From positions 7,874,001 through 7,938,000 of the forward strand of contig CM120647.1 in the NCBI GenBank assembly GCA_051362555.1: a stretch of 64,000 bases of DNA, read 5' to 3'. How positions within the stretch are numbered: the stretch's first letter is position 1; the number at the start of each line of letters is the position of its first letter. Below are positions 8,414 to 33,646 of this stretch, one piece after another. This DNA comes from Lingula anatina (Eukaryota; Animalia; Brachiopoda). Made by a program: the position numbers and the translations under genes. The notes under the pieces were generated by a model. The model was given only the letters and a program-made list of their open reading frames with translations. It searched no databases and had not been told where the DNA came from.

Positions 8414-9257
8414 AGTAAATAAATAAAAACTGCTCTTGGCAATCTGTCCGTACGCAAGAAATGGCACTCGAGATAAGCAGACCCCCGTTCAAATATTTAG
8501 TAACGTTTAATTTTTAATCTGCTCCCAATGTTACATGCATAATTTAACCAAATAATTTCTCGATGCCAACTGATTCTTTTTTCCGAAATCATAAACGCAA
8601 CTACACTAGTAAGTTAATGTACAAAGTATGTCATTGATGAGGTCTTCACAGTTTTTAATAGATTCTATAAAATAGAAAGGCCTTCTGGCGGGCAAGTTCA
8701 CAGTTTTGACTGTATCGGTGTTTCTTGGAACTTCATTTCATTATCTAGACGGTGATCGATGCTCTGAATGTGCTATCTTGGCATTTCCTTGTATTATTTT
8801 TCTTCGACCGCATTTATTTTGAATATATTCTAATTTAATCTAGTTTAAACTAAATGCTAAAATAATTTATTTCATATTCATGATAGTTGACCCGGTAAAA
8901 GATGCGAGATTCATACTTGTTATCAAACATTTTTTTCTGTAGGGTAAACTGCGGAGAAATATCCCTTAGTGAAATAAAACTCTGTGATCCCTGTAGAGGG
9001 TTGTCAAATACAGTAATTAAACTGTTGTATGCAGACTCTTTCCCCAACATGAAATATTACCACAGGTATTTTCTTTTTACCAGTTGCCCATTCCGTTACC
9101 TTTTCACATGGTGCCGTGGGGTTTTTAATGAAAAAAAAACAAGAAAACACAAGATATTACACAGTTCAATCTTTTATTACATCATGAACCAAATATGAAC
9201 AGAATTCTCAATTTGTGATGGTCGTCTGTGTATAAAGATGGCGCCACTAGTCTCGGT

Positions 9258-12343
<3,086 letters not shown>

Positions 12344-12493
12344 TTTCAGACTTTTATGGGACTAGTTTAATCTGAAATACAAAATAGGCGAGTTAAATAC
12401 TATGCATTCGTTTGTTATATCCAGTATGTTTTATTGTGAGCGATATATTTTCACAGAAATTTGCAATAAATTGGAGCTCTTTCCACTCCCTAC

Positions 12494-13296: not shown

Positions 13297-16200
13297 ACAC
13301 ACACACGTACACACAACAGAAACATAATCTGTGGAGGAAAATGGACTACTTAAAGTACTAGAGCTTTAGACAGCCATGGGTAACAAACAATTCCTTCTTC
13401 TCTACCCCTCCACATTTTATGATCTGAATTGGGAAAAAAACGTTTAGACTAGGAAAATGACTTAAAAGTATATAATATTGATATGACTATTTAATTATCA
13501 ATTTTTTCAAGGTAAAGATGCCAAGGTAAAGGGTTTGGCTGCTCCCAGTAATCTCTCCATGAATCAATCACTGGAAGGGCACAGTGGTAAGGAAATTATA
13601 TGAAAATTATAAGAAAATAATTAGAAAATTATTGAAAATTGTTATTAGATATCTGTTTATCGGAAGAGTTTCATCCGCTGTGTTTTGCACCATGATAAGA
13701 TTAAAGCAGCAATAAGATAAGATCAATAACAACACAGTATATTACCATTAATGCTTATTATATGAGGCAATGCAATTACCATTTTAATGTTTTTATTTAT
13801 TACACTTACAACACTGTCACAAATAATTGTATTGGTGGTCTTTAGATTCAGTTTTTGTAAAAATCTATTTAGAATGATAAGTACATATAACATGAGTGAA
13901 TGCTGTGTTTAACTTTCTCTTTGTCAGCAGATTCATTTTTTAAATTCATGCTCTCACAAAGTTTTTGTTGTGTAATTTGTCATTGTTTTATTTAATAATT
14001 TAATTTGATTAAGATTATTTAGATATGTAAAAAAGAGAAAATTTATCCCAAGGTAATCCTTGTGTCATTTGTTTTAAACATGATATCCTTATTTGCAGTT
14101 CCAGGTTCCACAGAATGTAGTAAACTTTCAATTCTTTATGATCGATAAAATGAATAACTCTGGTACTTGAACTTACACTAAGCAACGGACCGACGCTGGG
14201 GCCTCAACCTATGACCCCATTCCCAGAGATTAGATAGATCTACTTTAGGTCGACCTAACTCCCTGGGGGTTCACGCTAAATAGCTGTCAGCCGAGCGGAC
14301 ATGAAAGTTAATTACCCCCTTACAGCTTGTAGTAGGCAGGACGGATATTTAAGCTGGATTATCTGACAGTAATCTAGTGAGACTCCCCGCGGGGATAGAT
14401 CGATCTAAAAGCTCTGGGAATACAGCCTAAGACCTTTCTTTGATACTCTGCAAACTGTTATCTTCCCCAGCTACAGTTAAAATATATTTAAAATGATATA
14501 CATGTACATATGACATTCATTTTGTTAGCAAAATTCATTTTCTTTTCAACTCATGCTCTCACAAAGTTTTTATTGCCTTATTTGCCACTGTTCTATTCAA
14601 TAACTTAATTAAGATTATTCAGATATATCTATGAGAGAGAAAATTTATCCCATACTGACCCCAGTGTCATTGAGATTTTTTTTTCAGTTCCAGGATTCAC
14701 GGAATGCAATAAATAAACATTCAATTCTTTATACAAATACTTTATGAACTATTATCTTCTCCAGCCGCTGTCCAGGTGATCACGTGGAATGAGCACTACC
14801 AGAAACTGACCAGTAGTGACCAGTTTGGCCTCATCATTGTCTGGATGCTTTACAAGGGTAAACAGCCTAGATAGACCCCTAACATCAAAACAGTCTTCTC
14901 TCTGATAGTTCTCATAGCTGTTGAATGCCTGTGTTTGTCTTTATCTTCTGTTTAGATAGCCAATGTATTGTAGATGCTCTACTAGGGAAAGCAGCATTAA
15001 CTACTCATAATACTAAATTATTATAAAGATACAATGGCAGATCCAGATTTCCTTACCCCCCCCCCCCCCCCCCAAAAAAAAAAAAAAAAATCTATTTATG
15101 CACTTCACATATTATAAATTAAGGTAAAATTGCCCTCTCCCACTATTGCATATTTTTTGCTTTGTTTGTAAAAATAAATTATTCTTTGTACCCTTATCTT
15201 CCTCCTCTCCCTCCTTTATCAAAATCCTGGATCTGCCAGTGTAGGAAGTTTGCTCTAACACTGTCATTCCCTCCTGTATAGATATACCCAATGTCCAGGA
15301 ATGCCTCAGTTGCAGTGGCTCTGCTTTTTTTCTTACATCTCTGAGCTTCAGACTGATGCTTGATCCAGCCTCTTCAATTTAAAACCTGTGTGTGTCTTTA
15401 AAGTACTGTGACATTCAGCATCAAGTTTGATTGAAATTGACTATGCTTTATTATAAACCTTGAACTAGTGTTGCTTTGTTGACCTTATATCTGCTTGTAG
15501 ATGCATTGCAGTGGCTAGCTGGGGATTTTCTAATTATAATTCTTTATTTTATGCAGGTAAACTAGAGAGTGAAGTATAATTTTTTTTCCTTGCCATCCCC
15601 TCATTATACTGACTAAAACCTACGTTTCAGAGTGGATGCTGGACAGTTTCTTTGTTTTGAAAGAAACCGTGCATGTCTCCTTGTTGTGAACTTAATGGAC
15701 TAAATGCCTCAAAATAATCCTGTAATTGTGTTCCTTTTTCTATTCCCTACCCTTTTCTTATTTTTGTAACTTTTTTAACCTGACATGGCAGAGGAGACTG
15801 TCAATACTGTGGTGTGGAATCCATCCTCACTGCGTTTTTGCTCTGTGGACGATGCCAACCTCATAATCGTATGGGTTGAGGAGGAGACAGGTGCATGGTG
15901 TGAAATATTTTTCATGCACTTCACACATGAGAGGATCACCGTATAGCTTTTGGCATATTTACAATTTATTTTATTTCCATTTTTTGTGCTTTGGTCTTAG
16001 TTATCATACAATTTATTTTTGTCATTTTTTTGCTAATTTATTTTATGATTTTTTTTAATATTTATTGATTTTTTTTTTTTTTTGGGGGGGGGGGGGGGGG
16101 TATTAGAGGGGATTGCCAAAGAAAGCTTCACCTTAGTGATCTTCCTTTTGTGCAGTAATTTATTTCGTTTCATTTTATTTATTTTTTTCTTTTAAAAAAT

Positions 16201-19151
16201 ATTTTTCTTAATCATGCATGCATGCATTGAGTGGACTGATGTTTCCTATTGGTTCTCTGCTTTCATCAGCCAGGTCCCCCGTGTATCTGGTATTGTGGCA
16301 CCCCAAGCGGACACGTCTCACCTCCGTTGATTATTCCTCTCTCATCATAGTGTGGCGCAAGCACCAAGGTTGCTCTTCTTCTCACACAGGAAATCTTCCT
16401 TTTTGTCACTAAAAGACTAAATCCTCAGTTTTAATTTTTTATAAGCTTAGAACCTGTTCCTTTTTGTTACGTGTTTTTTTTTTCTTTTCTGTTGATTTTA
16501 TTTTTCGGTAATATTTGTTTTCATTCACTTTCAGCAGATACATTCTAAGGAGGCCTTGCTAAAAAAAACTTTCATTTTTTTTTAAATTATACTAGGACAC
16601 ATATGCCTTTAGACTTATTTTTTGACCTACTTTCCTTGACCTAATTTTTTTAACCTACTTTTTTCCAACTAAATTGCCCAGCACCCTGTGATATTCACAG
16701 CAATAATTTTATTTTCATTTCCTATTTGTTGAGTTGAATGCCATTCAGACTGGTTGTTTTATGAGACTGACCAGTCAAAATGACTACGTAGTAGACGAAA
16801 AGATTTACAGCACAGATCCTTGTGTTGCTTCACTTCTGCTATCATCTCTTTCACCTCAGCACAGTACCCTGTGATCTGCTTATGCTGGCACCCTGTCCCA
16901 CAGAGGGCGCCACAAGCCATTCTCGTGTCCGCTGGCGCCAACAACGCCATCCAGGCATGGGCGAGGTTGGATCGCAAGGTGGCGAACCGGCGCCTGATGG
17001 CAGAACAGGAGAGATTGATTCTTGAACAACCAAATTGTGCAGATGTTTATAAAGTTTTGACGAGTAAACTACATACTTCTGATTGGGTTTCTGAAAGTGA
17101 GCAGCCTCAGTTTTTAAAAAAAGTTCTCTTTTGTATTAATTTTGAAGAACTGTATAGCCTCTGGGTAGAACTAAAACTAGAAAAAAGATATTTAAATCCA
17201 GAAAATATTCAGAAGAAAAATATTCAGCTGCTATTGCTTGTTTGTTTCAAAAATTTGTACAGCCTAAATTATAGATAACAAAAATATACTTTAAGATGCT
17301 GTCACATGATGGTCATGTGATAGTCATGTGACTGTGCCATCATCACAGGGTGCTATGCAGTTTTTCCCACTAACTCTAATTTTCAGTCTCTGTATTTTAA
17401 ACTCTTTCCTAACTTTTCTTATTTGTTACTTCTTTTTATGCCTTTTAAACACAGGCTGATAAATTCCTTTTAATGTTCATGGCCACCGCATGTCTATTTT
17501 CTTACTTTCTGAGCCTTTGCTAGCCATTTTGCATTGTACACACAACCAATTCAAAGATGAAACATTCTGAACATTTAATGTCAGTTACCTTAAAGAGTAA
17601 CAGGTTTCTTTTTTCTGTTATTTAATTGAACAAGTGTTTCATGAAATCAAATAATCTTTACTGTTTCATTGTAAACCTATTGTAATTTAAGGGTCAATCA
17701 ATAATATTTCCTTCTCCCCTTTTTCATCTGTTTTTATCCTTCTCGTAATGAGAAAAAAGTATAATCATTTGGATCCTGCCTCCACTCTCTCAAAATGTAT
17801 TTTAGGAATAAATATAGTAAGGCGTTTTATTGAAGGAAATGATGCAGAGGGGAAAATACTGTTGATTGGTCCATTATTTAATATTAAATAATTTTTAAGC
17901 CCATACTGTAAAATCTACTTTAGTCATCAGAAATGTTTGTCTTGATACATATTTCAAAATGTGTACAATTGAAAAGTGCAGTTCTTCACTGAACTATTCA
18001 AAGTAATAAAAAAATGTTTACAATTTATTTTTTGAGTAAATAATGTGGTAATAGTTCCCTTTAATAACAGTTTGCTATAAAATAATAAAAATAACTTGTT
18101 GATAGAATATTGTCCTGTAAATGGCAGTTTTAACCAAGACAGGGTGGTATTTCAGGTTTGTGGTATGAGGAGATGATCAACAACAGAAACAAGTCTGTGG
18201 TGAGGTGTATGAAGTGGAATGCTGATGGACAGAAGATTTGTATTGTGTATGAAGATGGTAAGTCTGCCACACCTAACACAATATCTGCCACACCTTAAAA
18301 ATATCTGTCACATCTAACACAATGTTTGTCACATCTGACACAATGTTTGGCACACCCAACACAATGTCTGTTACACCTAATTAAATGTCTGCTGCACCTA
18401 ACGCAATGTTTGTTGCACCCATCACAATATTTGGAACACCCAATGCAATGTCAGTCAAACCTAACACACTATCTGGCACACCAAACACAATGTATATCAC
18501 AAACAGCAAAATCTTCACCACGCCTGACATTTTGCCATATTGTCATATTTGATTGTATGTTTTTTCTTGTGTAAAGTATGTTTGAATCACACCTCTTTGT
18601 TTTCATTTTAATCAGAACTGTGTACTTTTTTACTATTTATAATCGAATAGTTCTTAATAGCTGGTGCTACACAAACTCTTAATTATTTTGAAAATGTTTT
18701 ACTTATTTATGTATATTCCTGAAAATTTAACATACTTTGTTTGCAATAGATGTATTTAACAATTTATAAATTCTTATTCCCCCAGGAGCTGTTATAGTGG
18801 GCTCTGTTGATGGTAACAGAATTTGGGGCAAGGAGCTGAAATTACAGCTGGCTTATGTTGAGGTAAGAGATGTTCTTTACTATTCTTCTTCTTATTATTA
18901 TTTTTATTTATAATTGATTTATTTATATTTTTTGACACAGGCTACTGCAGATGTGGTTGCTAAACAAGGGGTTATCATTGTTAAAGTGCTAGGGTTTTAT
19001 TATTTTGCTTTTGTTTTTGAAAACAATGCACATGCCATTTTACTTTTCATTGAGTTTTGCTCAAGTTATATGAGTCACATTACAGTTAGTAGTCTCAAAA
19101 TGTAGAGATAAATGCTCTGTTTGTAGTGGTCATTTTGCAGCTTGAATGAGA

Positions 19152-19200
<49 letters not shown>

Positions 19201-19481
19201 CAGTGGTCTCCAGATGGCAAGATCCTGTTGTTTGGGATGACAAATGGAGAAATACAAGTGTTTGACAACACAGGAAACTTCATTGTAAGTGGCATATATT
19301 AAATTTCCACATAGAAAATATATGTAGAGTTTAAGCCTCATACAGTTGATTGTTTACTTTGTAGCCTATTGTACAATTACACTGCTAGTGTTTTTATTTT
19401 CTTTATTGCTCTCTTAAGCACTTTAAACACTATCATGGTTGCTTTCTAAACATAATTATTACAGTTTATTAAATTGTTTTA

Positions 19482-19541
<60 letters not shown>

Positions 19542-19584
19542 CTTCCCACCAGTCCAAACCTAATTATTACAGTTTATTGAATTG

Positions 19585-19635
<51 letters not shown>

Positions 19636-22600
19636 CTTCCCACCAGTCCAAGCTGACCGTGTTCTGTCTATCCAACGTGACAGGCGCTGTCCACATAGCT
19701 GGTATAGAGTGGTATAATGGAGAGTATGGGTTTGTGGAGCCAAACTGTCCCTGCCTGGCCATTGTCTACGATAACGGACGGTGCCAGATTATGAGGAATG
19801 AGTCTGATGAAAGTAAGCAACTACTATGTATTTGCCATGTCAAATATAGAACATGCCAAATTAAATTAGGGAGAGGTATTGCAAGGTTTTTCCTTGTTTA
19901 TGTTGAGAAAGGTAATATTACAACTACACACCACTAAGTAATCAGAGTGAGTCTAAAAAAGTTGCAGCAGAAACCTTCTAGCATTTGATTAATTATAACC
20001 ACAGTGGGTTATCTATGGAATATATAAAATGTAACAAAATATGTTCCTTTATTTAAGCATCCTAAAAGCAACTTTGATTCACTCCAATGTGTCGATAGAA
20101 CCATGGCACTCCACGGTGCTAAAAGGTACATTTTTTTTCATTATTTTCAGACCCAATCCTTATAGATACAGGGATGCAGGTTGCTAAGTCACAGTGGAAC
20201 CACACTGGGTCTGTCCTGGCAGTGGCGGGGTCACAGAGAGCAGCTTCAGCAGACAAGGATGTCAATGTTGTGCAGTTTTATACTCCCTTTGGAGAGGTAC
20301 GTAGACCAGAATTTGCTGTTGATGTTGTTGTTATTATTGTATTATTTTAATAATTATTAATTCTCAAGTGAAGATATCTGGAGATTTGATGTAAATTCCA
20401 GTCATGAAAGTGAGAAGGTTGAAGGTATTACATCTATATTTTTTTAAGAAAAAAAAAGCAATTTATTCATGCAAAAAAATTATTGCCCGACCCATCCCTG
20501 CTCTTAGATGTGCCATTTTGATAGTTATTTTGTACCTTGGAAAAGTATGTCATAGTGTGCACTGTCTATATAAACTGATATTGTAAACACCCATAATTGT
20601 ACCACCAGCGTAAGCGCTGGCGGTACACATGGTTTTAGTCCCGTCCGGATCGTTCCGCCGGCTCCTGCGGCTCCGCCGGACGGCTACCGTTACCGCTTCT
20701 CCTCCTAGACGGTAAGGGCCCCCGTACCCATCTCTTGGATTTAGGTCACCTATAATCTCAACTCGTTCCACGTAAAATTTGGGCTTTGTCGGTATTGGGG
20801 TCTAGGTGTGGCACTCATTGCAATGCACCCTTGTCTAAAAATGGCAAAATTAAATGCTAATTATCTACCCTACGGAAGGAATTATGGGAAAAATTTATAC
20901 AGACGGCTTTCCAAAAGTCATATGTGTAGATTTCAAATATGCCATTGGATTTGACCTTTGACCTTTATTTCAAGGTCAAACGGGCCAAAATTTTCAAAAA
21001 AATGAATTTTTTTACGAAAAAAAAAATTATTTAACCTGTTATTCAGACACCACACAGATTTAACCAATAATATTATTGGAAAGTGTTACCCTTCAGGTCA
21101 TCTTTCATCTTCGTGAATTTGGGGTCAATCGGTGCATTTTCACGGGAGTAGCGGCCATAAGATACTGAAACTGAAAACTGTCTCTAATTCGGGAACCGTT
21201 AATGCTAGAGACCCATTCTTTTTTTGCATTTTGTAGAGCATGTAAAGCCCAACACTGAAAGTGGTCTCCGTTTTTTTTGTATTCCATACGGTTTTCGAGT
21301 TACGCTGTATCAAAAAGTACATATTGGTGGTGAAAGCAAAATGTGCAGTACAGTAATGGATAATAAATTTTGAACTCTGGAAAAATAAAACATAAGGCTT
21401 GGCAAAGCAGACAACTTGTGGTCAAAAATGACATTATCTCATCAAATTTGAACTTCTGGAACTACAGAGCACCTCCCATTTCAAGAATTTTGACCAAAAT
21501 GACCTTTTCTTTATTTTAATTAATTTTTTTCTGTAGGCAATTTATGGCACATTATGGTAACACCTAAATTATAACATTTAGTCCCTTATATCTCCAAAAC
21601 TGGCAGAGATAGGTCCATAGTTACTATTGAACTTGAATAGGAAGTCATATACTGGCAATCTAAATGTGACCTTAAAATTGACCTTTGACCTACTTTTCAC
21701 CATGAACTGAACTTTGCAAATTTTGGTTCCCTTTTTTCTCCAAAACTGGCAGAGATAGGTCCATAGTTTCTATTGAACTTGAATAGGAAGTCATATACTG
21801 GCAAGCTAAATGTGACCTTGAAATTGACCTTTGACCTACTTTTTATCATGAATTGAACTTTGCAAATTTTGCTTCTCTTTTATCTCCAAAACTGGCAGAG
21901 ATAGGTCCATAGTTACTATTGAAGTTGAATAGGAAGTCATATATTGGCAAGCTAAATGTGACCTTGAAATTGACCTTTGACCTACTTTTCACCATGAGTT
22001 GAACTTTGCAAATTTTGGTTCCCTTTTTTCTCCAAAACTGGCAGAGATAGGTCCATAGTTTCTATTGAACTTGAATAGGAATGCATATACTGGCAAGCTA
22101 AATGTGACCTTGAAATTGACTTTTGACCTACTTTTTATCATGAATTGAACTTTGCAAATTTTGCTTCTCTTTTATCTCCAAAACTGGCAGAGATAGGTCC
22201 ATAGTTACTATTGAAGTTGAATAGGAAGTCATATATTGGCAAGCTAAATGTGACCTTGAAATTGACCTTTGACCTACTTTTTATCATGAATTGAACTTTG
22301 AAAATTTTGGTTCCCTTTTATCTCCAAAACTAGCGAGATAGGTCCATAGTTACTATTGAAGTTGAATAGGAAGTCATATATTGGCAAGCTAAATGTGACC
22401 TTGAAATTGACCTTTGACCTACTTTTTATCATGAATTGAACTTTGAAAATTTTGGTTCCCTTTTATCTCCAAAACTAGCGAGATAGGTCCATAGTTACTA
22501 TTGAACTTAAATAGGGAGTCATATACTGGCAATCTAAGTGTGACCTTGAAATTGACCTTTGACCTACCTTACGATGAACTTAAATTTGATTGTACCATTT

Positions 22601-25600
22601 TTAGTTATATATATTTTTTGCATATTTTTAAAATTCTTGTTGATTGCATTTTTACAGCTTGTCAAGCACAAGACTGGTTGCTGTGTCCCTTATTTTGTGT
22701 ATGTGGGGGTCTATACGAATGCGCTTGCTCCAGCTGGTGGTACAATATTTGGAGGCGGTATCGCCTCTCTGATCCTCTAGTTTTTCTTTGATCTCGTCTT
22801 TTTCTCTCTCCTAGCACCTGCGGACATTGAAGGTTCCAGGAAAACAGATGTTTTCGTGTTCGTGGGAGGGAGGAAGTCTGAGGATTGCCCTGGCCATTGA
22901 CTCTTTTATTTACTTCGCCAATATTAGACCGGATTACAAGGTAGGCATTGGTTTTAGAACAGTTGCATGTACACAGTCTCAGGATCCACTGCCTTAGGAG
23001 AGAAATGTTGCCCAGTAACTGAACAAATTTGCAAAATTTAACTGGACCAGTTTCAAATTTATCAATAATTGATGTAAGCTTATTATATTATAATCCATAT
23101 GTTATATATTCCAGTGGGGTTACTGCTCTAACACAGTAGTGTATACTTTCACTAAGCCAGAGAGGGCAGAGCACTGTGTTATCTTCTGGGACACAAAAAA
23201 TAATGAAGTAAGTCAGATTTTATAGTTTTCATTATTTTAAAAGATAATTGTTGTCAGTTGTCTGGCCATAATGTCTTTATCAAATACACTCTAAGATTTA
23301 AATGTGTAATTATTTGTGAATGGTTCACATTTTGCTCCACTTTCTGTTGCTGGGATGTGTGAAGTGAATGATTCACATTTTGTTCTACTTTTTGTTGACA
23401 GGGATATGTGAAGTGGATGCTTCACATTTTTCTCTACTTCTTGTCTTAGCCTAAGGATACGTAAAGTGAATGAACCACATTTTGCTCTACTTTCTCCTTC
23501 CAGAGATATGTGAAATATGTGAAGAATCTCTTGTCGATCTCTGCTTGTGGTGACTACTGTTGCCTGGCAACAAGGGCGGATGATGTCAGTGGTCAGGTTA
23601 GTGGAAAAATAATCACATACTCACATATATTTAGATAAATTATGCAACAGTTTTAAGAATGAGGAGCAATTTCTTTACCTTTTGGAACATTCAAGCTATA
23701 AATATGGGTTTTAACATTTCTGAGTTCGGAATTGTGAAAAGCAACATAATTTTGTCCCTGGCTATGCGTTATATAATGTGAAATTATCATAAGTTACGAT
23801 CTAAAAAAAATTAACGCCTGTTGAGGAATTCTAACCAAAGAAAAAACATCATTGTGGCTCAGTTCCAGAAATATGTATGAAAATCAAAATCCTTTCATAT
23901 TTTATTTCAGTATGTCCTCGTACTGTGCAACTCCATTGGCACGCCCCTGGACTCCAAGTACATAGAACTAGAGCCTGGCTACGTGACCATGACCAAGACC
24001 CACATCGTGGCGGCGTCCAAGGAGGCGTTTTACACCTGGCAGTACAAGACCACCCAGAAACTGACCACCATGGACCTGTCTGGGAAAAGACGGGGAGGAA
24101 CTGAGAAGTAAGGAAATTTTTGTTTTGTATCTAAGATGTAATCTGTGTCAAAAAATATAGTGAAAAACTGACCTGTCTGGGAAGAGACGGGGTGGCACTG
24201 AGAAGTGAGAAAATGTTTCATTTGTATCAGCTAATTAATTCACATTAGAAATTTGATGCAACATACTTCAGTCCTGTTTACTAAATGTTTTTTTTTTTTT
24301 TTTTAGCTTAAAAAAAAATACCAATAAATCCAGAAAAACCATGCCCATTAATATACCCAGCAATTTTGTCTGGCCTTATTGTATTTTTATTTCCAAGTTA
24401 TACCATTTGGATGACATAATTATACTATGATGTTCAGGTTATACCACATATTGTACCTATAATTGTTATATTATTCCAGGCTATATCATGTGGATGATGT
24501 ACCTTCAGGAGCAGGAGGTGATAACATTGACTTCAGCAAAGCTTTCCAGGTAAGCAAAAGCATCTAATGGCAGGATTTTATTATGTTATTTTATCTTAAA
24601 TTTAAGTCAGAGTTATGATATACTACCAAGGAAATTCCGCATGAGAAGAGCAAATAAAATAGTGAATAAATAGGGTACTAGATGAATAAAATAAATAAAT
24701 AAATAATAAATAAGATTATTAATTTTGATTGGAAGGGGAGTAATTAATATTTTATAATATCCCATTCCAGCCCACACAAGACCCCATCTGCTGCATCAGT
24801 GCCTCGGACAAAATGCTGGTCATTGTAAGTAGATATTGTCCTGTTGTTGTTATTACACTCAGTAGTGACAAGTAAATTGAGGAAGGTCAAATAACTTTAT
24901 TTTTTATGGTGCAGTCATTGTTAAAATATCTTTAGCTAAGAGACACATATTGCAAGTCACCTTTGTGTATTCAGCTATCTAATTTTTGACAGTCTTAGAT
25001 TAGCCCAGGAAATTGCCAATGGCAATTTTTGGGAAGTAGGACCCAGTGGTATGTAGTGTTTGGTATTTACAGATATTTATATCCTCTTCCTAGGGTCGCG
25101 AGTCTGGTACTTTGAACAGGTACACAATGCCACTGGTGGCGCTGTCAAACAAACATGTCCTAAACTGTCGTCCTCACCAGATGGCGCTGAACTGCAACTC
25201 TACGTAAGTAGACAATGGGACAAGGTGTCTCAGACTAAAAAGAAAAGAAAAAAAGCTTTGTTAAACATTGGTCTTAATTAGAGGGTTAAAAAGATGATTT
25301 ACTTTGGGATAGAAGAAGCGATCCATTTGAATTAATACTCTTCCCCCCTCCAGTTGCAGAAACATTTTTATACTTGTGTTATATTTTCTCTCAAAAATAC
25401 ATCTGTCAATTTGCTTACTGATTTTAAATGAAACTAAAGAAAGAATTACCATTTTTCAAGACAATTTTGATAATTTCAGTCTTCGTAACTTTGCTTGTCA
25501 GTATTTGCAACTGAGCACAGATACTATATTTGTGATGAAAATGTGTATTCAATAGTTTAAGTTGCTCACATAAGAATTTCTTGTTTTCCGTCCAGTCGCC

Positions 25601-28600
25601 TGGCCATCATTGATATTTCTGGTGTGATGACCTTTTTTGACCTTGATGCCAAGGTCACAGATGCCAACGGACAGGAAGTTGTGGGAGAGCACCTGAAGTT
25701 TGAGAGGAAAGACGTCTGGGATATGAAATGGGCAGAGGTATGGACTTTATATAGATCTTTTAGGAGACTTTCTTGTTTAAACACTTCTAAGAACATTAAC
25801 TTTAAAATTGATTCATTTATTCTGTTTTTTTTTTAATGTTTTTTAATGGAAAAGTTTTATCATTTTGAGAAGTTGCTAAACCGACTTCTCTTAGGTCATA
25901 TCTTATATATAAATGAAAGTAATTATTCAGCTGCACGTTTTTTCCTTTTTTTAAGACTTGGAAGATGAAATGGCAAAAAGGTTATTTACTTTTTTTCTTT
26001 ATTTATCAGGACAACAGTGAGCTGATAGCTATGATGGAGAAAACCAGGATGTACATCTTCAGAAATCTGGACCCAGAGGTGGGTAGATTGTTATTATCAT
26101 TTTATTTTTTAAAACTTTTTTTACACTTTATAATGCTTTCATGCTTCATTTAGAACTGTGTTATTTAATCAGAAAAGGTACAATTCATCATACCCAAGTG
26201 CAAAGACTAGTTGAGCAATAATTTATGAGTAGAAAAATATTATTTCTTTTTTGGCAGAAAATAGATTCTACAGGAAATTCCCATATTGTTTACCTGAAGA
26301 TATCTCTGACTTATTCATGCCCCTGTTTGTTTATTAAAGGAGCCTGTATTAAGCAGTGGCTACATCGCCAAGTTTAACGACCTTGAAATCACCTCTGTGT
26401 TGTTGGACGAGATTATGAAGGATCCAGAAAATCCGACTGCGGATAATATACTACACCTTGAAATCAAGGTAAGCAAGTCATGTAGTAGCAGCTGTAGAAA
26501 GTTTTGTATGTAAATGCATTTTCTATTCTTTTTGGGGGGTTATTTACTCATTATATTTTAAAATGCCCTGATGACCAATAGTTGTATCAATGATTCAAAA
26601 GATATTATTAAGCAGATGTAATTTATTTTTTTGTGTATTTTGAATAATCATCTCTACCTACTTTGGCTTTTAAATTTGTCGTTGAATAAATAAAGCTCAT
26701 GATGAATAGTGAATTGCAATTTATTTGCTGCTGATAGAACAATTTAAGTTTTATTGCTCAATCTCCCTTAAGGCTAGGAAGTAAATCATTATGTGAGGCT
26801 CTATTTTTTCCTGTTTTTCTCCCTTCAGTCATTAAGAGACAGCAGAGATCTGTTGGAGAAAGTTGGTATTGAAGATGCCCAGCAGTTCATAGAGGACAAC
26901 CCACATCCCAGACTGTGGTGAGTAACTTATGTGATATGTCTGCACATACTTTCACACACGCATGCGTGCACACATGTTTAGACACTAACTCATATATTAC
27001 TTTCATGTTTCAGGGAAATTATTATATTGTTGTTCACATATGTAATCAAACACTCACACATACCTGGGCATGCACACGCACACAGAAGCACACAATCACA
27101 CACACACAGTTAATAAGTGTAAAGCTATTGTAAATGACATGATAACCAATCTGACTGTACAAGTAACATATAAGACTTTTTTTGTTTCATTAAATAATGG
27201 TACGTAAGCTAGTCTTAAAATTGATAAAAACAGTTGTCTTCCCCAAAACTCATCACTTTATAATACATTTTGATTTTTTTCCCCTTCTAGGCGACTTTTG
27301 GGAGAGACAGCCTTAGAGCAGCTGAACCTAAAAGTAGCAGACAGTGCATTTGTGAGGTGTAAAGATTTTCATGGGATAGAATTCATCAAGAGACTGGGGA
27401 ATTTACAGGTGGGGCTTTAAAAATGAGTTAATAAAATAATAAGTAAACAGGAAAATATTTTTTCCCTACATGTTAGGATATTTTAATGAACAATTTTAAA
27501 GATGTTTTAAGACAAAAAGCTGAACAAATTTACAAAATTATAATATACTCACTAATCTTGATTCAGAATAACTTGACAATGTCTTCATTTTACTTGTTAC
27601 TTGATTAATATTACATTATAATTTCTGTTTTTACCAATGAGTACCTAAAAAAAAATCATCAGCTAATTTCATTTTACATATTTTAATTTAAGCACAGTTT
27701 TTCAGCATGTCTATGAACACACTGTCATGACTTTTATATATCTTTTAGACCTTTTTTGTGTATAAGAGAAATTTTTAGTACTGTAAATCTCAACTTAAAG
27801 TTCCAAAATGATGATGATGATGATGATTGTTATTATTATTTCAATACACAGAATGAGACAATGAAGCAGGCAGAAGTAGCGGCATACTTCAGAAGGTTTG
27901 ACGAGGCAGAGAGGCTTTACATGGAGATGGACAGAAGGTACGGAATATCTGAGTTTCAGAACCAGCATTGGCTAGCAAGCTTCATTTTCAAGCCTTCATA
28001 TATCCAAAATCTGACATTAAAGCTTCATTTCTGACATTCCCAGATATAACAGCCTAGCTTGCGATTCAGGTTGATTCAAGCCAGTTTCTCAACTTTAAAA
28101 TTTTCCCTTCATGCCCATTTTCTGTCTCTGATCTTCAGCAACTTTTGATTTCAGTGTTCTGGGACAAATTTGCAAAAATATTTTCTAATTTCATTAAGAT
28201 CTTATCTGTTAATATAAATTTGCCTACAGGCATCACCAGGGAAAAAAATAAGCAGTTTATAAGATGTTTAATATCATTTTTCATTGGACAGGGACCTGGC
28301 CATAGCCCTGAGAAAGAAGCTTGGTGATTGGTTCAGGGTGGTCCAGTTACTGAAAACTGGGTCAGGGGGAGATGATGTGCAACTAGAGGAGGCATGGAAT
28401 GCTATAGGGGACTACTATGCTGACAGGCAAAAATGGTAGGCATTGAGATAGAAAGGGGGGGGAAGGAGAGGAAGAAAAAGAGACAAAGACAGGTTTTCCT
28501 AACACAAGGGAGAGAATCTGAAGCATCCAATGAATGAATGACTTTGTCATCAGGCAGTTTTGACACCTTTGATGTATAATGGCCATGTCATACACCTCAT

Positions 28601-31600
28601 ATAAAAACACCTGTATAAAAATAGTAATATCAATTATGATAATATTATAATATGAATATGGTGATCACTTCCCAGGCAGCAGGCGGTGACCTACTACGTC
28701 CAGGGCAGGAACCAGGAGCGTCTGGCAGAGTGTTACTATATGCTGGAAGACTACCAGGGTCTGGAGAAGATGGTACAGTTCTTACCTGAGAACCATAAAC
28801 TACTGCCTGTAAGTAGACATTAATGTTTATATAATATTATTGATAACTAGAAAAAGATATAGTGGTAAAATTAATAATTATATTGGTAGGGAGGAAGATA
28901 CATATGATAGTGATCATTGTTAAAGTAATAAGAATTAATAAAATTATATGCAGTTATAAAAGTTATGACACGTCATTGAATCAGAACTTAAAAACTTGGA
29001 AGTGATTACCTTGTTAAGTGATTTACTGAAACATTTTGCAGCAAACTTGGGTTTGGTTCTTGCAGGGGTGATAAACATCCTTGAGAATTTACTTTTGAAT
29101 CAGTATGATTATTATTTTTGTATATGTATATTTGTATATGTATATTGTCTATTTTTGTATATATTATATATGATTATAGCTGCATATTTTGTCCACAAAA
29201 AGTCCCACACTTCAAAACATACAATTATTATTATTATTATTATTATTATTCCTGTGTTTTAGGAGATAGCAGGCATGTTTGTCACAGTGGGGATGTGTGA
29301 ACAGGGAGTGGAGGCATATATAAAGGTAAGAATACTGATCATTGGTTTTAATAGCATCTGTACTTATAATACTACTATTAATAATAATATTAATAATAAT
29401 AATATCATTATTATGATTAGAGTATCTGTGAAAATGATATATTAATAATGGTAAAAATCATGTTTGCCTCTGGAGTGGCAGTTTTTTGGTTGGCTCCTGG
29501 GTCAAACGAGGCCTTCAGAGATAATAATGATACTTTTTTAATGATATTGCTGAAATGATAATAATTATTATTGTTAAGAAATTACATTGATAATGGTATT
29601 ACATGATAACAATAAATTGGTATTGATAAAATGGATAACAATAATGTTAATAATAATCATTAGTAAGTACATGTAGTATTGACATCCATGCATAGTGCAA
29701 CTTTACAGCTTATAAGACATGTATATATATAATTTAAATTATTTCATCCTCTTAACTTCATTTATTCACAGTGTAACCGTGTAAAGCAGGCCATAGACGC
29801 CTGTGTCCACCTCAACCAGTGGAATCAAGCCATTGACCTGGCCAAACAGCACAACATCAAAGAGATCGACTCTCTGCTGGCAAAGTATGCCCAGCACCTG
29901 CTGGAGAAGAAGAAGGAACTGAGTGCCATTGAGCTGTACAGAAAGGCCAGCCATTACCTAGAGGGCGCCAAGTTGTTGTTTAAGGTAAGCTGGGGTTGTG
30001 CCATTAAAATTTAAATTAAAATGAACAAATTATTTAATCAATTAACAAATTAATTTATAACAAATTAATCAGTTAAAATGAGAATTGAAGTTTCTTGGCA
30101 GAGGTCAGCACTCTCTGATTGCTTGATTTATATCTGCTGAAATTAACTTCGGTTTTCTTTTTTCTTTTCTTTTTTTTTATTTATGCCACACTTTGTTCTT
30201 ATTCATGAAACATTGATATATTACACACAGCACTTGTACAGCATGTACAACAGACATGTAAAGCACACTATCTTTAAAAAAGCTCTTCATAGTTGTAATT
30301 ATAAAGAATAATTTTCATTACTGAATTTTATTTCTGTCATTACCCAGGTTGCAGATGAAGAAGCTCAGAAAGGCAGCAAACCACTGCGGATCAAGAAGCT
30401 GTATGTCCTGGCCGCTCTTCTTATCGAGCAGTACCACGAACACGTGAAGTCCACCTCTAAGTCCAAGGCTAAAGGAAAGTCCAGAGAGGTATGAGACACT
30501 GAAAACAATTTGGGATATTGGTGAAATAAGTTTTTCTGTGTCTCTTGTGTAAGGATGGTAAAAAGTCCACTGTTTTGAAAGAGACTTAATGTATTATCCC
30601 ATTATTCTGAGTGTTTCTACCCTTCATTGAAATGCCATGACTCATAGGCAGATGTTTAATTTTCATATGTACTAATTATTTAGCACATATTAAGCTTTGG
30701 CCATCTTGGCTGCAGGCTTTCTTAAGACTGATCTGAGGAGACATTAAAATTATATTAGGATCGTATGTGTGATTTCTCTAGAAATGACGTTACATGTCTA
30801 AACCACTATTACAGAACTCTGACAGTGACTGTTATTTGAACTATTTCAGGCAACCTCAGCCCTAGCAGGACTTCTTGAGGAAGACTCAGCCTCTATATCA
30901 GACACAAAGCTTATAGACAATGCATGGAGGGGGGCAGAGGCATACCACTTCTATCTCCTGGCACAGAGACAGCTCTATGAAGGTAGGGAACCTTGCTCTG
31001 GAGGCCCTTTGGGGTTATTTTATTTATTTATTTTTTTATTTCAACTTTTTTATTGAACTATTTTATTGAATTAAATTTATACAATTATTTTAAATTACTT
31101 TTAATTTTTGACTAATAGCTGGAAATTTGATAATCAAAATTTTGAACCAAAATATTGTTTTTTATTTAATCTAAATATATTTCAATTAAAATAATAATTT
31201 TGACAATGTCACATTTTCATAAGCCAGCAAAAGTGAGGTATTTTCTGAAGTTAAAGAATTTACACGTTTTACTATAACTATTTTAACTTTATATTTTAGG
31301 TTATGTGGACGCTGCCATGAACACAGCTCTGCAGCTCAGAGACTATGAGGACATCATCGACCCCATCAAAGCTTACTCACTGATAGGTACTGTTCATTAT
31401 TTTATAATTGGAAAAAGTAAATCAGTTTTTACTCGAAACATTTTAGCTTGCTGGTCCTTTGAGTCACCAGGGCCTTGGATTCTGAAAGCCTACTGGTGCA
31501 GAACAGAAACTGTCACAGTGGCTATTAACAGAAAAAAAATCACTTTTAACAATTATAATGGCATTATCCAGTGCAGCAAACAGTATTTGATGCATGTTCC

Positions 31601-31918
31601 AAAGCATTTATTATGCTTATGAAAGGTACATCTTTAATTTTAATCCAGACAAAAAAAAAAAAAAAACAGTTACTAACAGTTTTTACTCATTTCATGTAAT
31701 ATAATATAAATTCTTTTCAATCTCACCTTAGCTTTGTCAAGTGCAGCAAACAGAGCGTTTGGTACATGTTCCAAGGCCTTCATTAAACTGGAGTCTATAG
31801 AAAGTGCCAGTCCTGAGGGGAAATCACAGTATGAACAGCTGGCTCTGGATATCTTTACCAAGTAAGAATCTTGTCAGTATTTTATCAGTACATGTAGCAA
31901 AGTATTTGAGTCATTAAT

Positions 31919-31961
<43 letters not shown>

Positions 31962-32533
31962 ATTAAAGTTCTTCTCATTTTTTAGCAGTTTATTTATGAA
32001 TTAAATTACTGGTAGCTATTTTCATTGTTTTCATTCAGTGAGATGCATTGGTTGAGTGCTTATATAATTTAAAAAAAAATAATGCATCATTGTCTATTTC
32101 TTTACATAAACATATACCAAGAAACCAGCTTTTCATTTATTTATTTATTTATTTATTTATTTGTCTCTCTAGGCACAGTCCTAAAGACAGCAAGAACACG
32201 AGGTCAGATGCTGCCAACTATGCTAACCTCGTGGCTGAAGGGTAGGTTGCATATAAAACTTTAAGACCCCATTTCCAGAGATTAGATCGATATACTTTAG
32301 ATCGACCTAACTCCCTGGGGGTTCACGCCAAATAGCTGTCAGCCGAGCGGCACGAAAGTAAATTACCCCCTTGCAGCTTGTAGTAGGCGGGACGGACATT
32401 TAAGCCGGATTATCTGACAGTAATCTAGTGAGACTCCCCACGGGGATAGATCGATCTAAAAGCTCTGGGAATACAGCCTAAGACACATTTTCATACAGTG
32501 TGTACATTATGTATGATTTGATATTGTACTATA

Positions 32534-32584
<51 letters not shown>

Positions 32585-32910
32585 GTGTGCACTCATACAG
32601 GCTTTGTAAATGACACAATTTCAGAAATTACACTCAATTAATAAATTTGTGACTGATGATATGTTATAGCATGTAGACTGTCAGTTAATGCAACTTCAGA
32701 ATTTTTAATCAGATATGTTTTGGAAAAACTCAGATTACATTTATGACTATGTTATTTTTACCCAGGGACCCCAAGTTACCAGTGTGCATTGCGACAGGTC
32801 GTACGTTAGTGGATTACCAGTTCTGGGTGTGCAACACGTGCAAGCACTGCGCGTACGAGCAGGAGGTGCAGAGTCGCAACTTCTGTCCCCTCTGTCACAG
32901 TCCAATGTGA
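12659..32910 (+). CDS. WDR35: WD repeat-containing protein 35 (IFT121, IFT-A subunit)
   Basis: 32 phase-consistent GT-AG exons: 12659-12682, 13124-13241, 13512-13586, 14765-14857, 18156-18257, 18786-18862, 19204-19284, 19647-19812, 20151-20296, 22815-22940, 23115-23207, 23504-23596, 23911-24107, 24480-24549, 24771-24824, 25094-25203, 25596-25737, 26010-26078, 26340-26468, 26829-26917, 27291-27408, 27852-27937, 28292-28435, 28676-28808, 29263-29325, 29772-29984, 30348-30488, 30850-30982, 31300-31386, 31732-31861, 32173-32241, 32766-32910. Diagnostic peptides: [73 protein letters not shown]. Confidence 0.97.
14213..14430. mobile_element. MITE family A, copy 2
   Basis: Near-identical to 32263-32480 and related to 1847-2053; TTCCCAGAG...CTCTGGGAA inverted ends. 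Confidence 0.85.
15032..15241. mobile_element. MITE, TA-flanked
   Basis: TIRs CAATGGCAGATCCAG ... CTGGATCTGCCAGTG with TA on both sides. Confidence 0.65.
15792..15890 (+). CDS. WDR35: WDR35 alternative exon 4b (paralogue of exon 4a)
   Basis: cag|...ACAG|gtgcat, 99 nt, phase 1-1; [34 protein letters not shown] aligns with exon 4a [32 protein letters not shown]. Confidence 0.8.
16270..16368 (+). CDS. WDR35: WDR35 alternative exon 4c (paralogue of exon 4a)
   Basis: ttctctgctttcatcag|...CAAG|gttgct, 99 nt, phase 1-1; [34 protein letters not shown]. Confidence 0.8.
16860..17063 (+). CDS. WDR35: WDR35 alternative exon 4d (divergent; 3' boundary uncertain)
   Basis: Strong acceptor ctctttcacctcag|, phase 1; [40 protein letters not shown] is a WD40-like V..WHP...L.S......I..W pattern. 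The best-looking phase-1 donor is A|gtaaac at 17064; otherwise the frame runs to a stop at 17278. Confidence 0.55.
17342..17363 (+). promoter_or_regulatory. Candidate docking site for the WDR35 exon-4 cluster
   Basis: ATCACAGGGTGCTatGCAGTTT is complementary to 16671-16692 (13 bp perfect + 7 bp) and to 16863-16875 (13 bp with one G-U). Confidence 0.55.
18262..18500. repeat. 21-bp degenerate minisatellite, ~11 copies
   Basis: Unit approximates CTGCCACACCTAACACAATAT; starts right after the exon 5 donor. Confidence 0.85.
20594..22780 (+). mobile_element. Helentron-associated (HINE/DINE-like) non-autonomous element with central 146-bp satellite
   Basis: 5' palindrome TGTACCACCAGCG-TAAG-CGCTGGCGGTACA; 3' subterminal inverted copy GCTGGTGGTACAAT, short hairpin GAGGCG-GTAT-CGCCTC, then CTAG-T-tract end; internal tandem array. 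Confidence 0.75.
21585..22590. repeat. 146-bp tandem repeat, ~7 copies
   Basis: TCTCCAAAAC recurs at 21591, 21737, 21883, 22029, 22175, 22321 and 22466. Confidence 0.95.
32263..32480. mobile_element. MITE family A, copy 3
   Basis: Near-identical to 14213-14430; inserted ~20 nt downstream of the WDR35 exon 31 donor. Confidence 0.85.
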
Positions 32911-33646
32911 AAACAATGACGACTGCGAATAGAATTTCTGAAGTCATTACAAATGTGATACATACAACATACTTAAAGGAGAAAAATTGTTTTAACTGTG
33001 ACTTAAATGTATTCTAAAATAGAATGAACAATTGCTTTCAGCATTACCAAAATTTTGGACTGTAAAAGATGAGCTTTTGAAAAGACAGATATTGGATATT
33101 TTTTTACTACAAAAGTGATGCTAATGTTTTTTCTCAAAATTTCTTCAATTGTGTACATGTGTATTTGATACATGAGGTATTCGATTGCTAAGATTCATAT
33201 TCATATGCATTTTTTTCTTAAATCGTAAAAAAAATTATCATATTTTAAGATTGAATTACTGTGCAGGATTATCGTTTCCGTCCTTTAAGCCTTTTTCCCC
33301 CCTTTCCATAGTCGAATGACGTCAAAAGATTTCACACATTAGATTAACAGAAATTTATTTAAAGTGTATTTTAAACAGAAATTTACTATGTGTGTTTCAT
33401 ATTAAAAAGAAAATCTTGAAATGATGTGCAGCAAATTAATTCCAGTGTGCAGAGAACTGTTTATTGGAACAAAGGGAAGCATTCTTCATTATCCTAAATT
33501 ATACTGCATCTTTAAAAAAGGCATTCCGTTCAAGATTCTTAAGTAATTTGATTACTCAGAAAATATTATGAAATAGTTTTAACTAATCAAAATAGCAATT
33601 TTGATCGTCTTCAAACCACTTATTCTTTTGAAATGTATATTTTAAC

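Follow-up and report, generated by a model that had tools for sequence, protein, structure and literature searches.

Competing RNA pairings predicted around a minor alternative exon in the WDR35/IFT121 gene of the brachiopod Lingula

When several versions of one exon lie side by side in a gene, what determines which of them reaches the mature transcript? The question is raised here by a tandem of exon-4 versions (4a to 4d) located downstream of exon 3 in a cilia-transport gene of Lingula (a brachiopod), within a window of 64,000 nucleotides (64 kb), the window being the whole stretch of DNA analysed. The host gene, on the + strand, is WDR35/IFT121: Pfam family PF24797 is matched by exons 2, 4a and 5, and the exon-4 alignment matches residues ~74–102 of human WDR35, within the N-terminal propeller. 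A sequence-only reading of the locus had proposed that an element beyond the last variant pairs with alternative upstream partners, each pairing bringing a chosen variant to exon 5, in the manner of insect docking sites and selectors. The best reading of the evidence presented below is a two-state switch looping exon 4d out or leaving it in, rather than a four-way selector system. The features concerned are listed in Table 1.

Table 1. Exons of the cluster and predicted pairing elements (positions in the window)
Feature	Position	Strand	Description
Exon 3, WDR35/IFT121	13512..13586	+	Constitutive; phase 1 end; AG/GT ends
Exon 4a	14765..14857	+	93 nt; canonical WDR35 sequence; major form
Exon 4b candidate	15792..15890	+	99 nt; phase 1-1; open frame; AG/GT
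Exon 4c candidate	16270..16368	+	99 nt; phase 1-1; open frame; AG/GT
S1	16671..16692	+	Intronic, after 4c; predicted dock partner
S3	16859..16875	+	Start of exon 4d; predicted minor dock partner
Exon 4d	16860..17096	+	237 nt, 79 codons; in-frame splice to exon 5
S2	17144..17166	+	Intronic, 48 nt past 4d donor; predicted dock partner
Predicted hairpin	17301..17332	+	Directly 5' of dock, within S2 loop; CATGTG-type boxes
Dock	17342..17366	+	Common element for S1, S2 or S3, with overlapping bases
Exon 5	18156..18257	+	Constitutive; PF24797 positions 103-136; read joints and depth

The four versions form a tandem of homologous exons in a single phase (1-1), with lengths that are multiples of three, GT-AG borders and a spacing of 379–934 nt. 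Given these lengths, borders and distances of hundreds of bases, the NMD, U2/U12 and steric routes to exclusivity named in PMC6071210 are not applicable. The match to PF24797 extends over positions 73–102 in 4a (E 1.5e-12), 72–100 in the 4b candidate (E 4.1e-4) and 73–101 in the 4c candidate (E 2.2e-4). Exon 4d has no Pfam match of this kind (PF24797 positions 72–102); it was aligned with the other variants on V, W, S, I and W, and the score of its DNA alignment with 4c was reached in none of 300 shuffles. The DNA of 4b and of 4c aligns weakly with that of 4a (scores reached in 33 and 11 of 300 shuffles, respectively), and both candidates have an intact frame and intact splice sites despite this near-absence of DNA alignment. 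Searches for relatives of the variants gave weak negatives: no orthologue candidate for 4c alone among proteins of 25–83 aa, no orthologue among the 99 candidates from an alignment search with 4d, 4c and 4b, and a single match for 4d among 1.84 billion representatives, a 4622-aa repeat protein without a WDR35 family match. Past its WD40-like part, 4d carries ~40 additional residues (16979–17096).

Splicing of the cluster was followed in reads mapped onto 16662–18270 only, from four of 21 listed runs; 4b and 4c lie outside that stretch. Run X8 is labelled 'DNA?', yet it displays exon-only coverage with one intron skipped. In this run, exon 3 is joined to 16860 (the loose end preceding 4d is the 3' end of exon 3) and 17096 is joined to 18156 with GT..AG borders, and these joints establish the length and frame of 4d and the distance between its donor and S2 given in Table 1. 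Alternative 4d donors at 16978 and 17063 were ruled out by the reads placing the donor at 17096, and the GT at 16979–16980 is absent from X10, the run from a diverged lingulid described below. Loose ends preceding 16859 are present in both X8 and X12. Depth in X8 is 5.4–6.2 at the 4d joints, versus 22.3 for the 4a–5 joint. In run X12, of which ~6% was sampled, 31 reads were mapped; seven pass from 4a to exon 5 (agreement 0.99) and three enter 4d, with the end of 4a as the consensus before it (agreement 0.72), a pattern that fits two reads from 4a and one from elsewhere, most simply exon 3. Run X15 contributed two reads only, and no junction of 4b or 4c was found among the seven reads entering exon 5 (target 16662–18270). 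Exon 4d is, thus, a genuine minor exon, and the spliced forms 4a–5, 3–4d–5 and 4a–4d are all present. The strict mutual exclusivity initially assumed is not supported, as about two of the three X12 reads entering 4d join it to 4a; these reads could be mates, and the leak of exclusivity through 4a–4d double inclusion therefore amounts to one or two molecules. The suggestion that 4a is the default version fits these reads (X8 depth for 4a–5, and the seven reads of X12).

The element proposed to govern the choice of variant is the dock, in the intron beyond 4d. All four strings named in the sequence-only reading were found at their positions; 17342–17354 is the exact reverse complement of 16680–16692, and the 20-bp S1:dock duplex, with a 2x2 loop and one G-U pair, was reproduced at a computed -31.8 kcal/mol. 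The two arms are 649 nt apart, and the loop between them would take in all of 4d. When the dock was scanned against 13587–18155, a further partner was obtained that had previously been overlooked: S2 (17144–17166), in a local region with a fold z-score of -3.54, is predicted to pair with the dock at -30.5 kcal/mol with four G-U pairs, a pairing that would leave 4d outside the loop. The notion of competing partners for a single downstream element was thereby retained with S1 and S2 as the competitors, the computed pairings linking one element past the last variant to at least two upstream partners via the same bases. The other two partners initially proposed fared less well. The sequence at 16863–16875 does pair with the dock in computation (S3:dock alone, -27.5 kcal/mol), but it lies inside 4d at the acceptor, where pairing would act by masking 4d, not by selecting it. 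The sequence at 16129–16140, put forward as a selector for 4b, was dropped: its energy with the dock (-15.1 kcal/mol) is background, as 848 of 1500 shuffled versions of the intron pair equally well.

Exon 4b has other pairing sequences around it. A perfect 32-bp inverted pair, a C+A run at 15057–15088 and a T+G run at 16069–16100, flanks this exon; its predicted energy is -56.6 kcal/mol and it would loop out 4b. C and G runs of at least 12 occur six and five times in the 64 kb, making chance a plausible origin for this pair. Another duplex (-29.3 kcal/mol) is predicted between 15657–15685, in the intron before 4b, and the sequence from ~15877 onward, in the region of the 4b donor.

Could such pairings arise by chance? 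In shuffled controls of duplex energy, both S1 and S2 stood above background. The S1:dock energy was reached in none of 1500 shuffles of the S1 intron, a comparison that is post hoc, the pair having defined the dock. S2 was not used in choosing the dock and constitutes an independent, out-of-sample test: its energy was reached in none of 3000 shuffles of the S2 intron and, with the 2.46-kb cluster shuffled as a whole, in two of 1166. With either the target or the dock shuffled, none of 200 runs matched any of the four best energies. The 13-mer of the dock has five matches at up to two mismatches in the 64 kb, versus 1.13 expected (0/100 shuffles); three of the five are the sites already named, and there is no further copy at zero or one mismatch in the window. 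As a look-elsewhere control, 1189 29-mers across 15178–32998 were each scanned against the 2.5 kb preceding them; in a ranking by second-best partner, only a poly-G tract came ahead of the dock. Two of 318 GC-matched 29-mers of the gene equalled the best partner of the dock, and none equalled its second or third; the two intronic partners of the dock 29-mer have z-scores of -3.2 and -4.5 among GC-matched windows. Comparison of the strands was less informative: the antisense S1:dock duplex is equally stable (-30.9 kcal/mol), as expected for a DNA inverted repeat, and S2, with a strand bias of 13 kcal/mol, exceeds selected controls by ~1 sd, so that this asymmetry test fails to separate S2 from them. 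Rfam gave no match at gathering score in the window; a mir-1000 match at 16684–16754 was rejected as chance level (E 0.82).

S1 and S2 would occupy the same dock bases, with an ensemble difference of 1.4–1.6 kcal/mol. Within 16600–17450, the predicted cost of forcing S1 or S2 was +0.1 or +1.5 kcal/mol, respectively, at 37 °C, and +1.6 or 0.0 kcal/mol at 25 °C, with S3 more expensive in context (+5.2 to +6.9 kcal/mol). The S1/S2 balance at 37 °C flips with the folding window (0.91/0.09, 0.42/0.58 and 0/1.0), and a fair statement is that S1:dock and S2:dock are, by computation, near-equal, mutually exclusive helices, with no ratio claimed.

On balance, the dock probably pairs with S1 or with S2 and thereby acts on exon 4d as a splicing switch with two states; from the computed duplexes and their near-equal energies, we infer that the helices form in vivo and control exon choice. 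In the first state, the 649-nt loop closed by S1:dock would contain the acceptor and the donor of 4d, and this exon would be skipped, leaving an upstream variant to join exon 5, mostly 4a and possibly 4c where this exon is activated. In the second, S2:dock would use up the dock with 4d outside the loop, and 4d would join exon 5. S3, at the start of 4d, might provide a minor second silencing route by masking the acceptor region. The dock would govern the downstream intron only, with the splicing of exon 3 or 4a onto 4d set by splice-site strength and proteins, which would explain the 4a–4d leak. What survives of the original proposal is a downstream element with competing partners at a real tandem-exon cluster, a part strengthened by S2; the scheme with a selector for each variant is not supported. 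A 1.5-kb cassette containing two near-equal helices would be easy to test.

A full four-way docking/selector system, with a selector for every variant and only one variant ever included, seems unlikely. The positions of S1 after 4c and S2 after 4d do correspond to the textbook layout for a downstream dock, the intact frames and splice sites of 4b and 4c are in keeping with functional exons of such a system, and the best site after 4b (16215–16242, -20.7 kcal/mol) is marginal, being reached in 53 of 1500 shuffles. After 4a, however, the best site is at background (82 of 500 shuffles as good), in agreement with the earlier remark that no convincing selector follows this exon, and selectors were found only after 4c and 4d. 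In intron 3, nothing stood out as an upstream dock with several partners; the best second partners there have energies of -23 to -25 kcal/mol, in mostly GC-rich windows. The double inclusion of 4a and 4d and the lack of 4b or 4c junctions among the seven reads into exon 5 also argue against this system.

Run X10, which bears the same species label, provides a comparison with one relative. Divergence in this intron is ~9%, and the stretch 16946–17672 has 62 substitutions together with 13 gap letters. The differences listed are 40 of 117, inferred to be complete for 16979–17495 and including all 13 gap letters. Exon 4d has five differing codons in X10, three of them silent, and no gap, so its frame is kept; the first gap, at 17111, lies past the 4d donor. 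The dock is unchanged over 17341–17376 (36 nt; 0/25 changes in the dock itself, P=0.10), and S2 is unchanged over 17139–17163, with two changes at 17164–17165, one of which keeps a pair (G-U to A-U) while the other breaks one. The X10 version of S2:dock is still predicted to fold (-28.2 kcal/mol, probability 0.90–0.95). For S1, two records have three and two differences in the 75 and 70 nt around the element. Conservation of the elements in this one relative is not significant (2/48 positions changed, versus 31/351 elsewhere; p=0.21), the longest change-free run (46 nt, 17202–17247) lies outside them, and no compensatory change was found in S2:dock in this single comparison. In X10, three of 28 changed places, versus 87 of 273 unchanged ones, fall in high-probability pairs at 37 °C (p=0.013); the same test at 25 °C is not significant (p=0.12). 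The predicted hairpin is not kept in the folded X10 version (probability 0.04–0.12). It contains three CACATG/CATGTG boxes directly before the dock, which may represent RNA structure or E-box-like DNA sites.

hAT-like DNA transposons have terminal inverted repeats and generate an 8-nt target duplication. The S1/dock pair has comparable features, a 22-nt imperfect inverted repeat flanked by an 8-nt direct repeat with one mismatch (7/8; 16663–16670 and 17364–17371), and might be DNA debris that plays no part in splicing, either old transposon ends or a stretch copied from the start of 4d by template switching; S2 would then be due to chance. The flanking repeat is equalled by 149 of 20000 random position pairs, a value (0.7%) that is optimistic, as the two flanks are rich in pyrimidines and the inspection could have settled on any of several repeat lengths. 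S1 also resembles the start of 4d (12/13; local alignment reached in 3 of 300 shuffles, post hoc), and S1:dock is strand-symmetric. This origin is nevertheless improbable: it leaves S2 unexplained (two of 1166 whole-cluster shuffles), the enclosed DNA contains a spliced, in-frame paralogue of the gene's own exon, X10 depth is flat (~39) over 16986–17633, and the 64-kb window contains neither dispersed copies of the S1/dock element nor an extra copy at zero or one mismatch.

Exon choice might alternatively be dictated by splice-site strength and RNA-binding proteins, with duplexes that can form but do not decide the outcome, and with the slow change in the neighbourhood of the dock due to a DNA element (the CATGTG boxes at 17301–17332) or to chance. 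The non-significant conservation is compatible with such an explanation, as are the 6–8 kcal/mol required to open each element locally and the limited fit of the variant donors to U1 (5–6 of 9 positions only). It has a low probability in our view, since it fails to explain the presence of two intronic partners (z -3.2 and -4.5) on either side of the regulated exon.

The two-state switch preferred here resembles several known systems, competing RNA pairings for exon choice having been described in arthropods and mammals (PMC6071210, PMC4691838, PMC7797038). Downstream docking is reported for the insect clusters of 14-3-3zeta, Mhc, MRP1 and Dscam1 exon 4 and exon 9 (PMC6071210, PMC4691838). Like these clusters as described in those papers, the Lingula cluster has tandem duplicated exons, one dock in the intron past the last variant and selectors in internal introns that would compete for the same dock bases. 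The dock accounts for only one of two introns in the description given in PMC6071210, and the likeness extends to Lingula, where this limitation fits the 4a–4d leak. According to an earlier model for insects, a dock left unpaired leads to inclusion of the exon closest to it (PMC4691838); in Lingula, unlike in insects, the last variant has its own putative selector, S2. The Lingula cluster also differs from the insect ones in that 4a and 4b lack a clear selector, one partner is located inside 4d and double inclusion is observed, and in being a prediction, for a ciliary transport gene of a brachiopod.

In exons 7a/7b of mammalian ATE1, R1 and R4 compete for R3, and the exon ratio depends on how far the two helices differ in stability. 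Both R1 and R4 overlap splice sites, double inclusion has been measured as one of the outcomes, and proof came from compensatory mutants and antisense oligonucleotides (PMC7797038). Two elements would likewise compete for one in Lingula, and S3 overlaps a splice-site region as R1 and R4 do, but ATE1, as described there, has two exons and conserved elements, whereas the Lingula cluster has four variants and is a prediction only. As a selector was not found for every variant, the cluster is not filed as an insect-type or ATE1-type member. According to the duplication model of Ivanov and Pervouchine (2018; PMC6071210), duplication of an exon together with one stem arm yields two selectors for one dock; by that account, the local stem would correspond to S2:dock and the copied arm to S1. 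Unlike in this model, the intron following 4c has no detectable homology with the one following 4d (score reached in 134 of 300 shuffles), and such a copying history is hypothetical.

No case of competing pairings in a brachiopod or other lophotrochozoan was found among the titles and abstracts of the matches listed, which cover few subscription papers. Nor was a tandem-exon cluster in WDR35/IFT121 found among matching titles and abstracts, although supplementary genome-wide tandem-exon tables could list the gene. It may tentatively be suggested that an insect-type switch of competing RNA pairings arose independently in this brachiopod, swapping part of one WD40 blade of IFT121 and giving tissue-specific versions of the core IFT-A complex. 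If true, this would be a docking/selector system in a spiralian and a regulated exon swap in an IFT-A subunit, at the IFT121 propeller that faces the membrane; finding such a switch in a third lineage would favour the view that these systems originated repeatedly and independently once exons had been duplicated. The N-terminal propeller of WDR35 adjoins the ciliary membrane and also touches IFT140 in the adjacent complex (bioRxiv 2022.08.09.503213), and alternative blades could change IFT-A cargo or train assembly.

The surroundings of the cluster are rich in repeats. Intron 3 contains a partial tandem duplication (13912–14139 and 14513–14732, also 14443–14471), in which the acceptor region of 4a occurs once more without an exon behind it. 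A dispersed repeat of ~237 nt has one copy (14210–14446) separating the two halves of this duplication and another (32262–32496) close to the 3' end of the gene. An array of a 21-nt tandem unit begins just past the exon 5 donor (18278–18550), and satellite-like repeats occupy ~21600–22580 in a WDR35 intron; by eye, a short motif of the satellite unit resembles the 14-nt repeats at 16618–16659, just before S1. On the - strand, a ribosomal protein gene of the L7Ae/L30e family (~9270–12345) is arranged head-to-head with WDR35, ~310 nt away, and Rfam gave no match in its region (9200–12400). On the + strand, 36351–61814 is occupied by a RIM (regulating synaptic membrane exocytosis) gene, one of whose exons has 99% identity to a protein of Lingula anatina.
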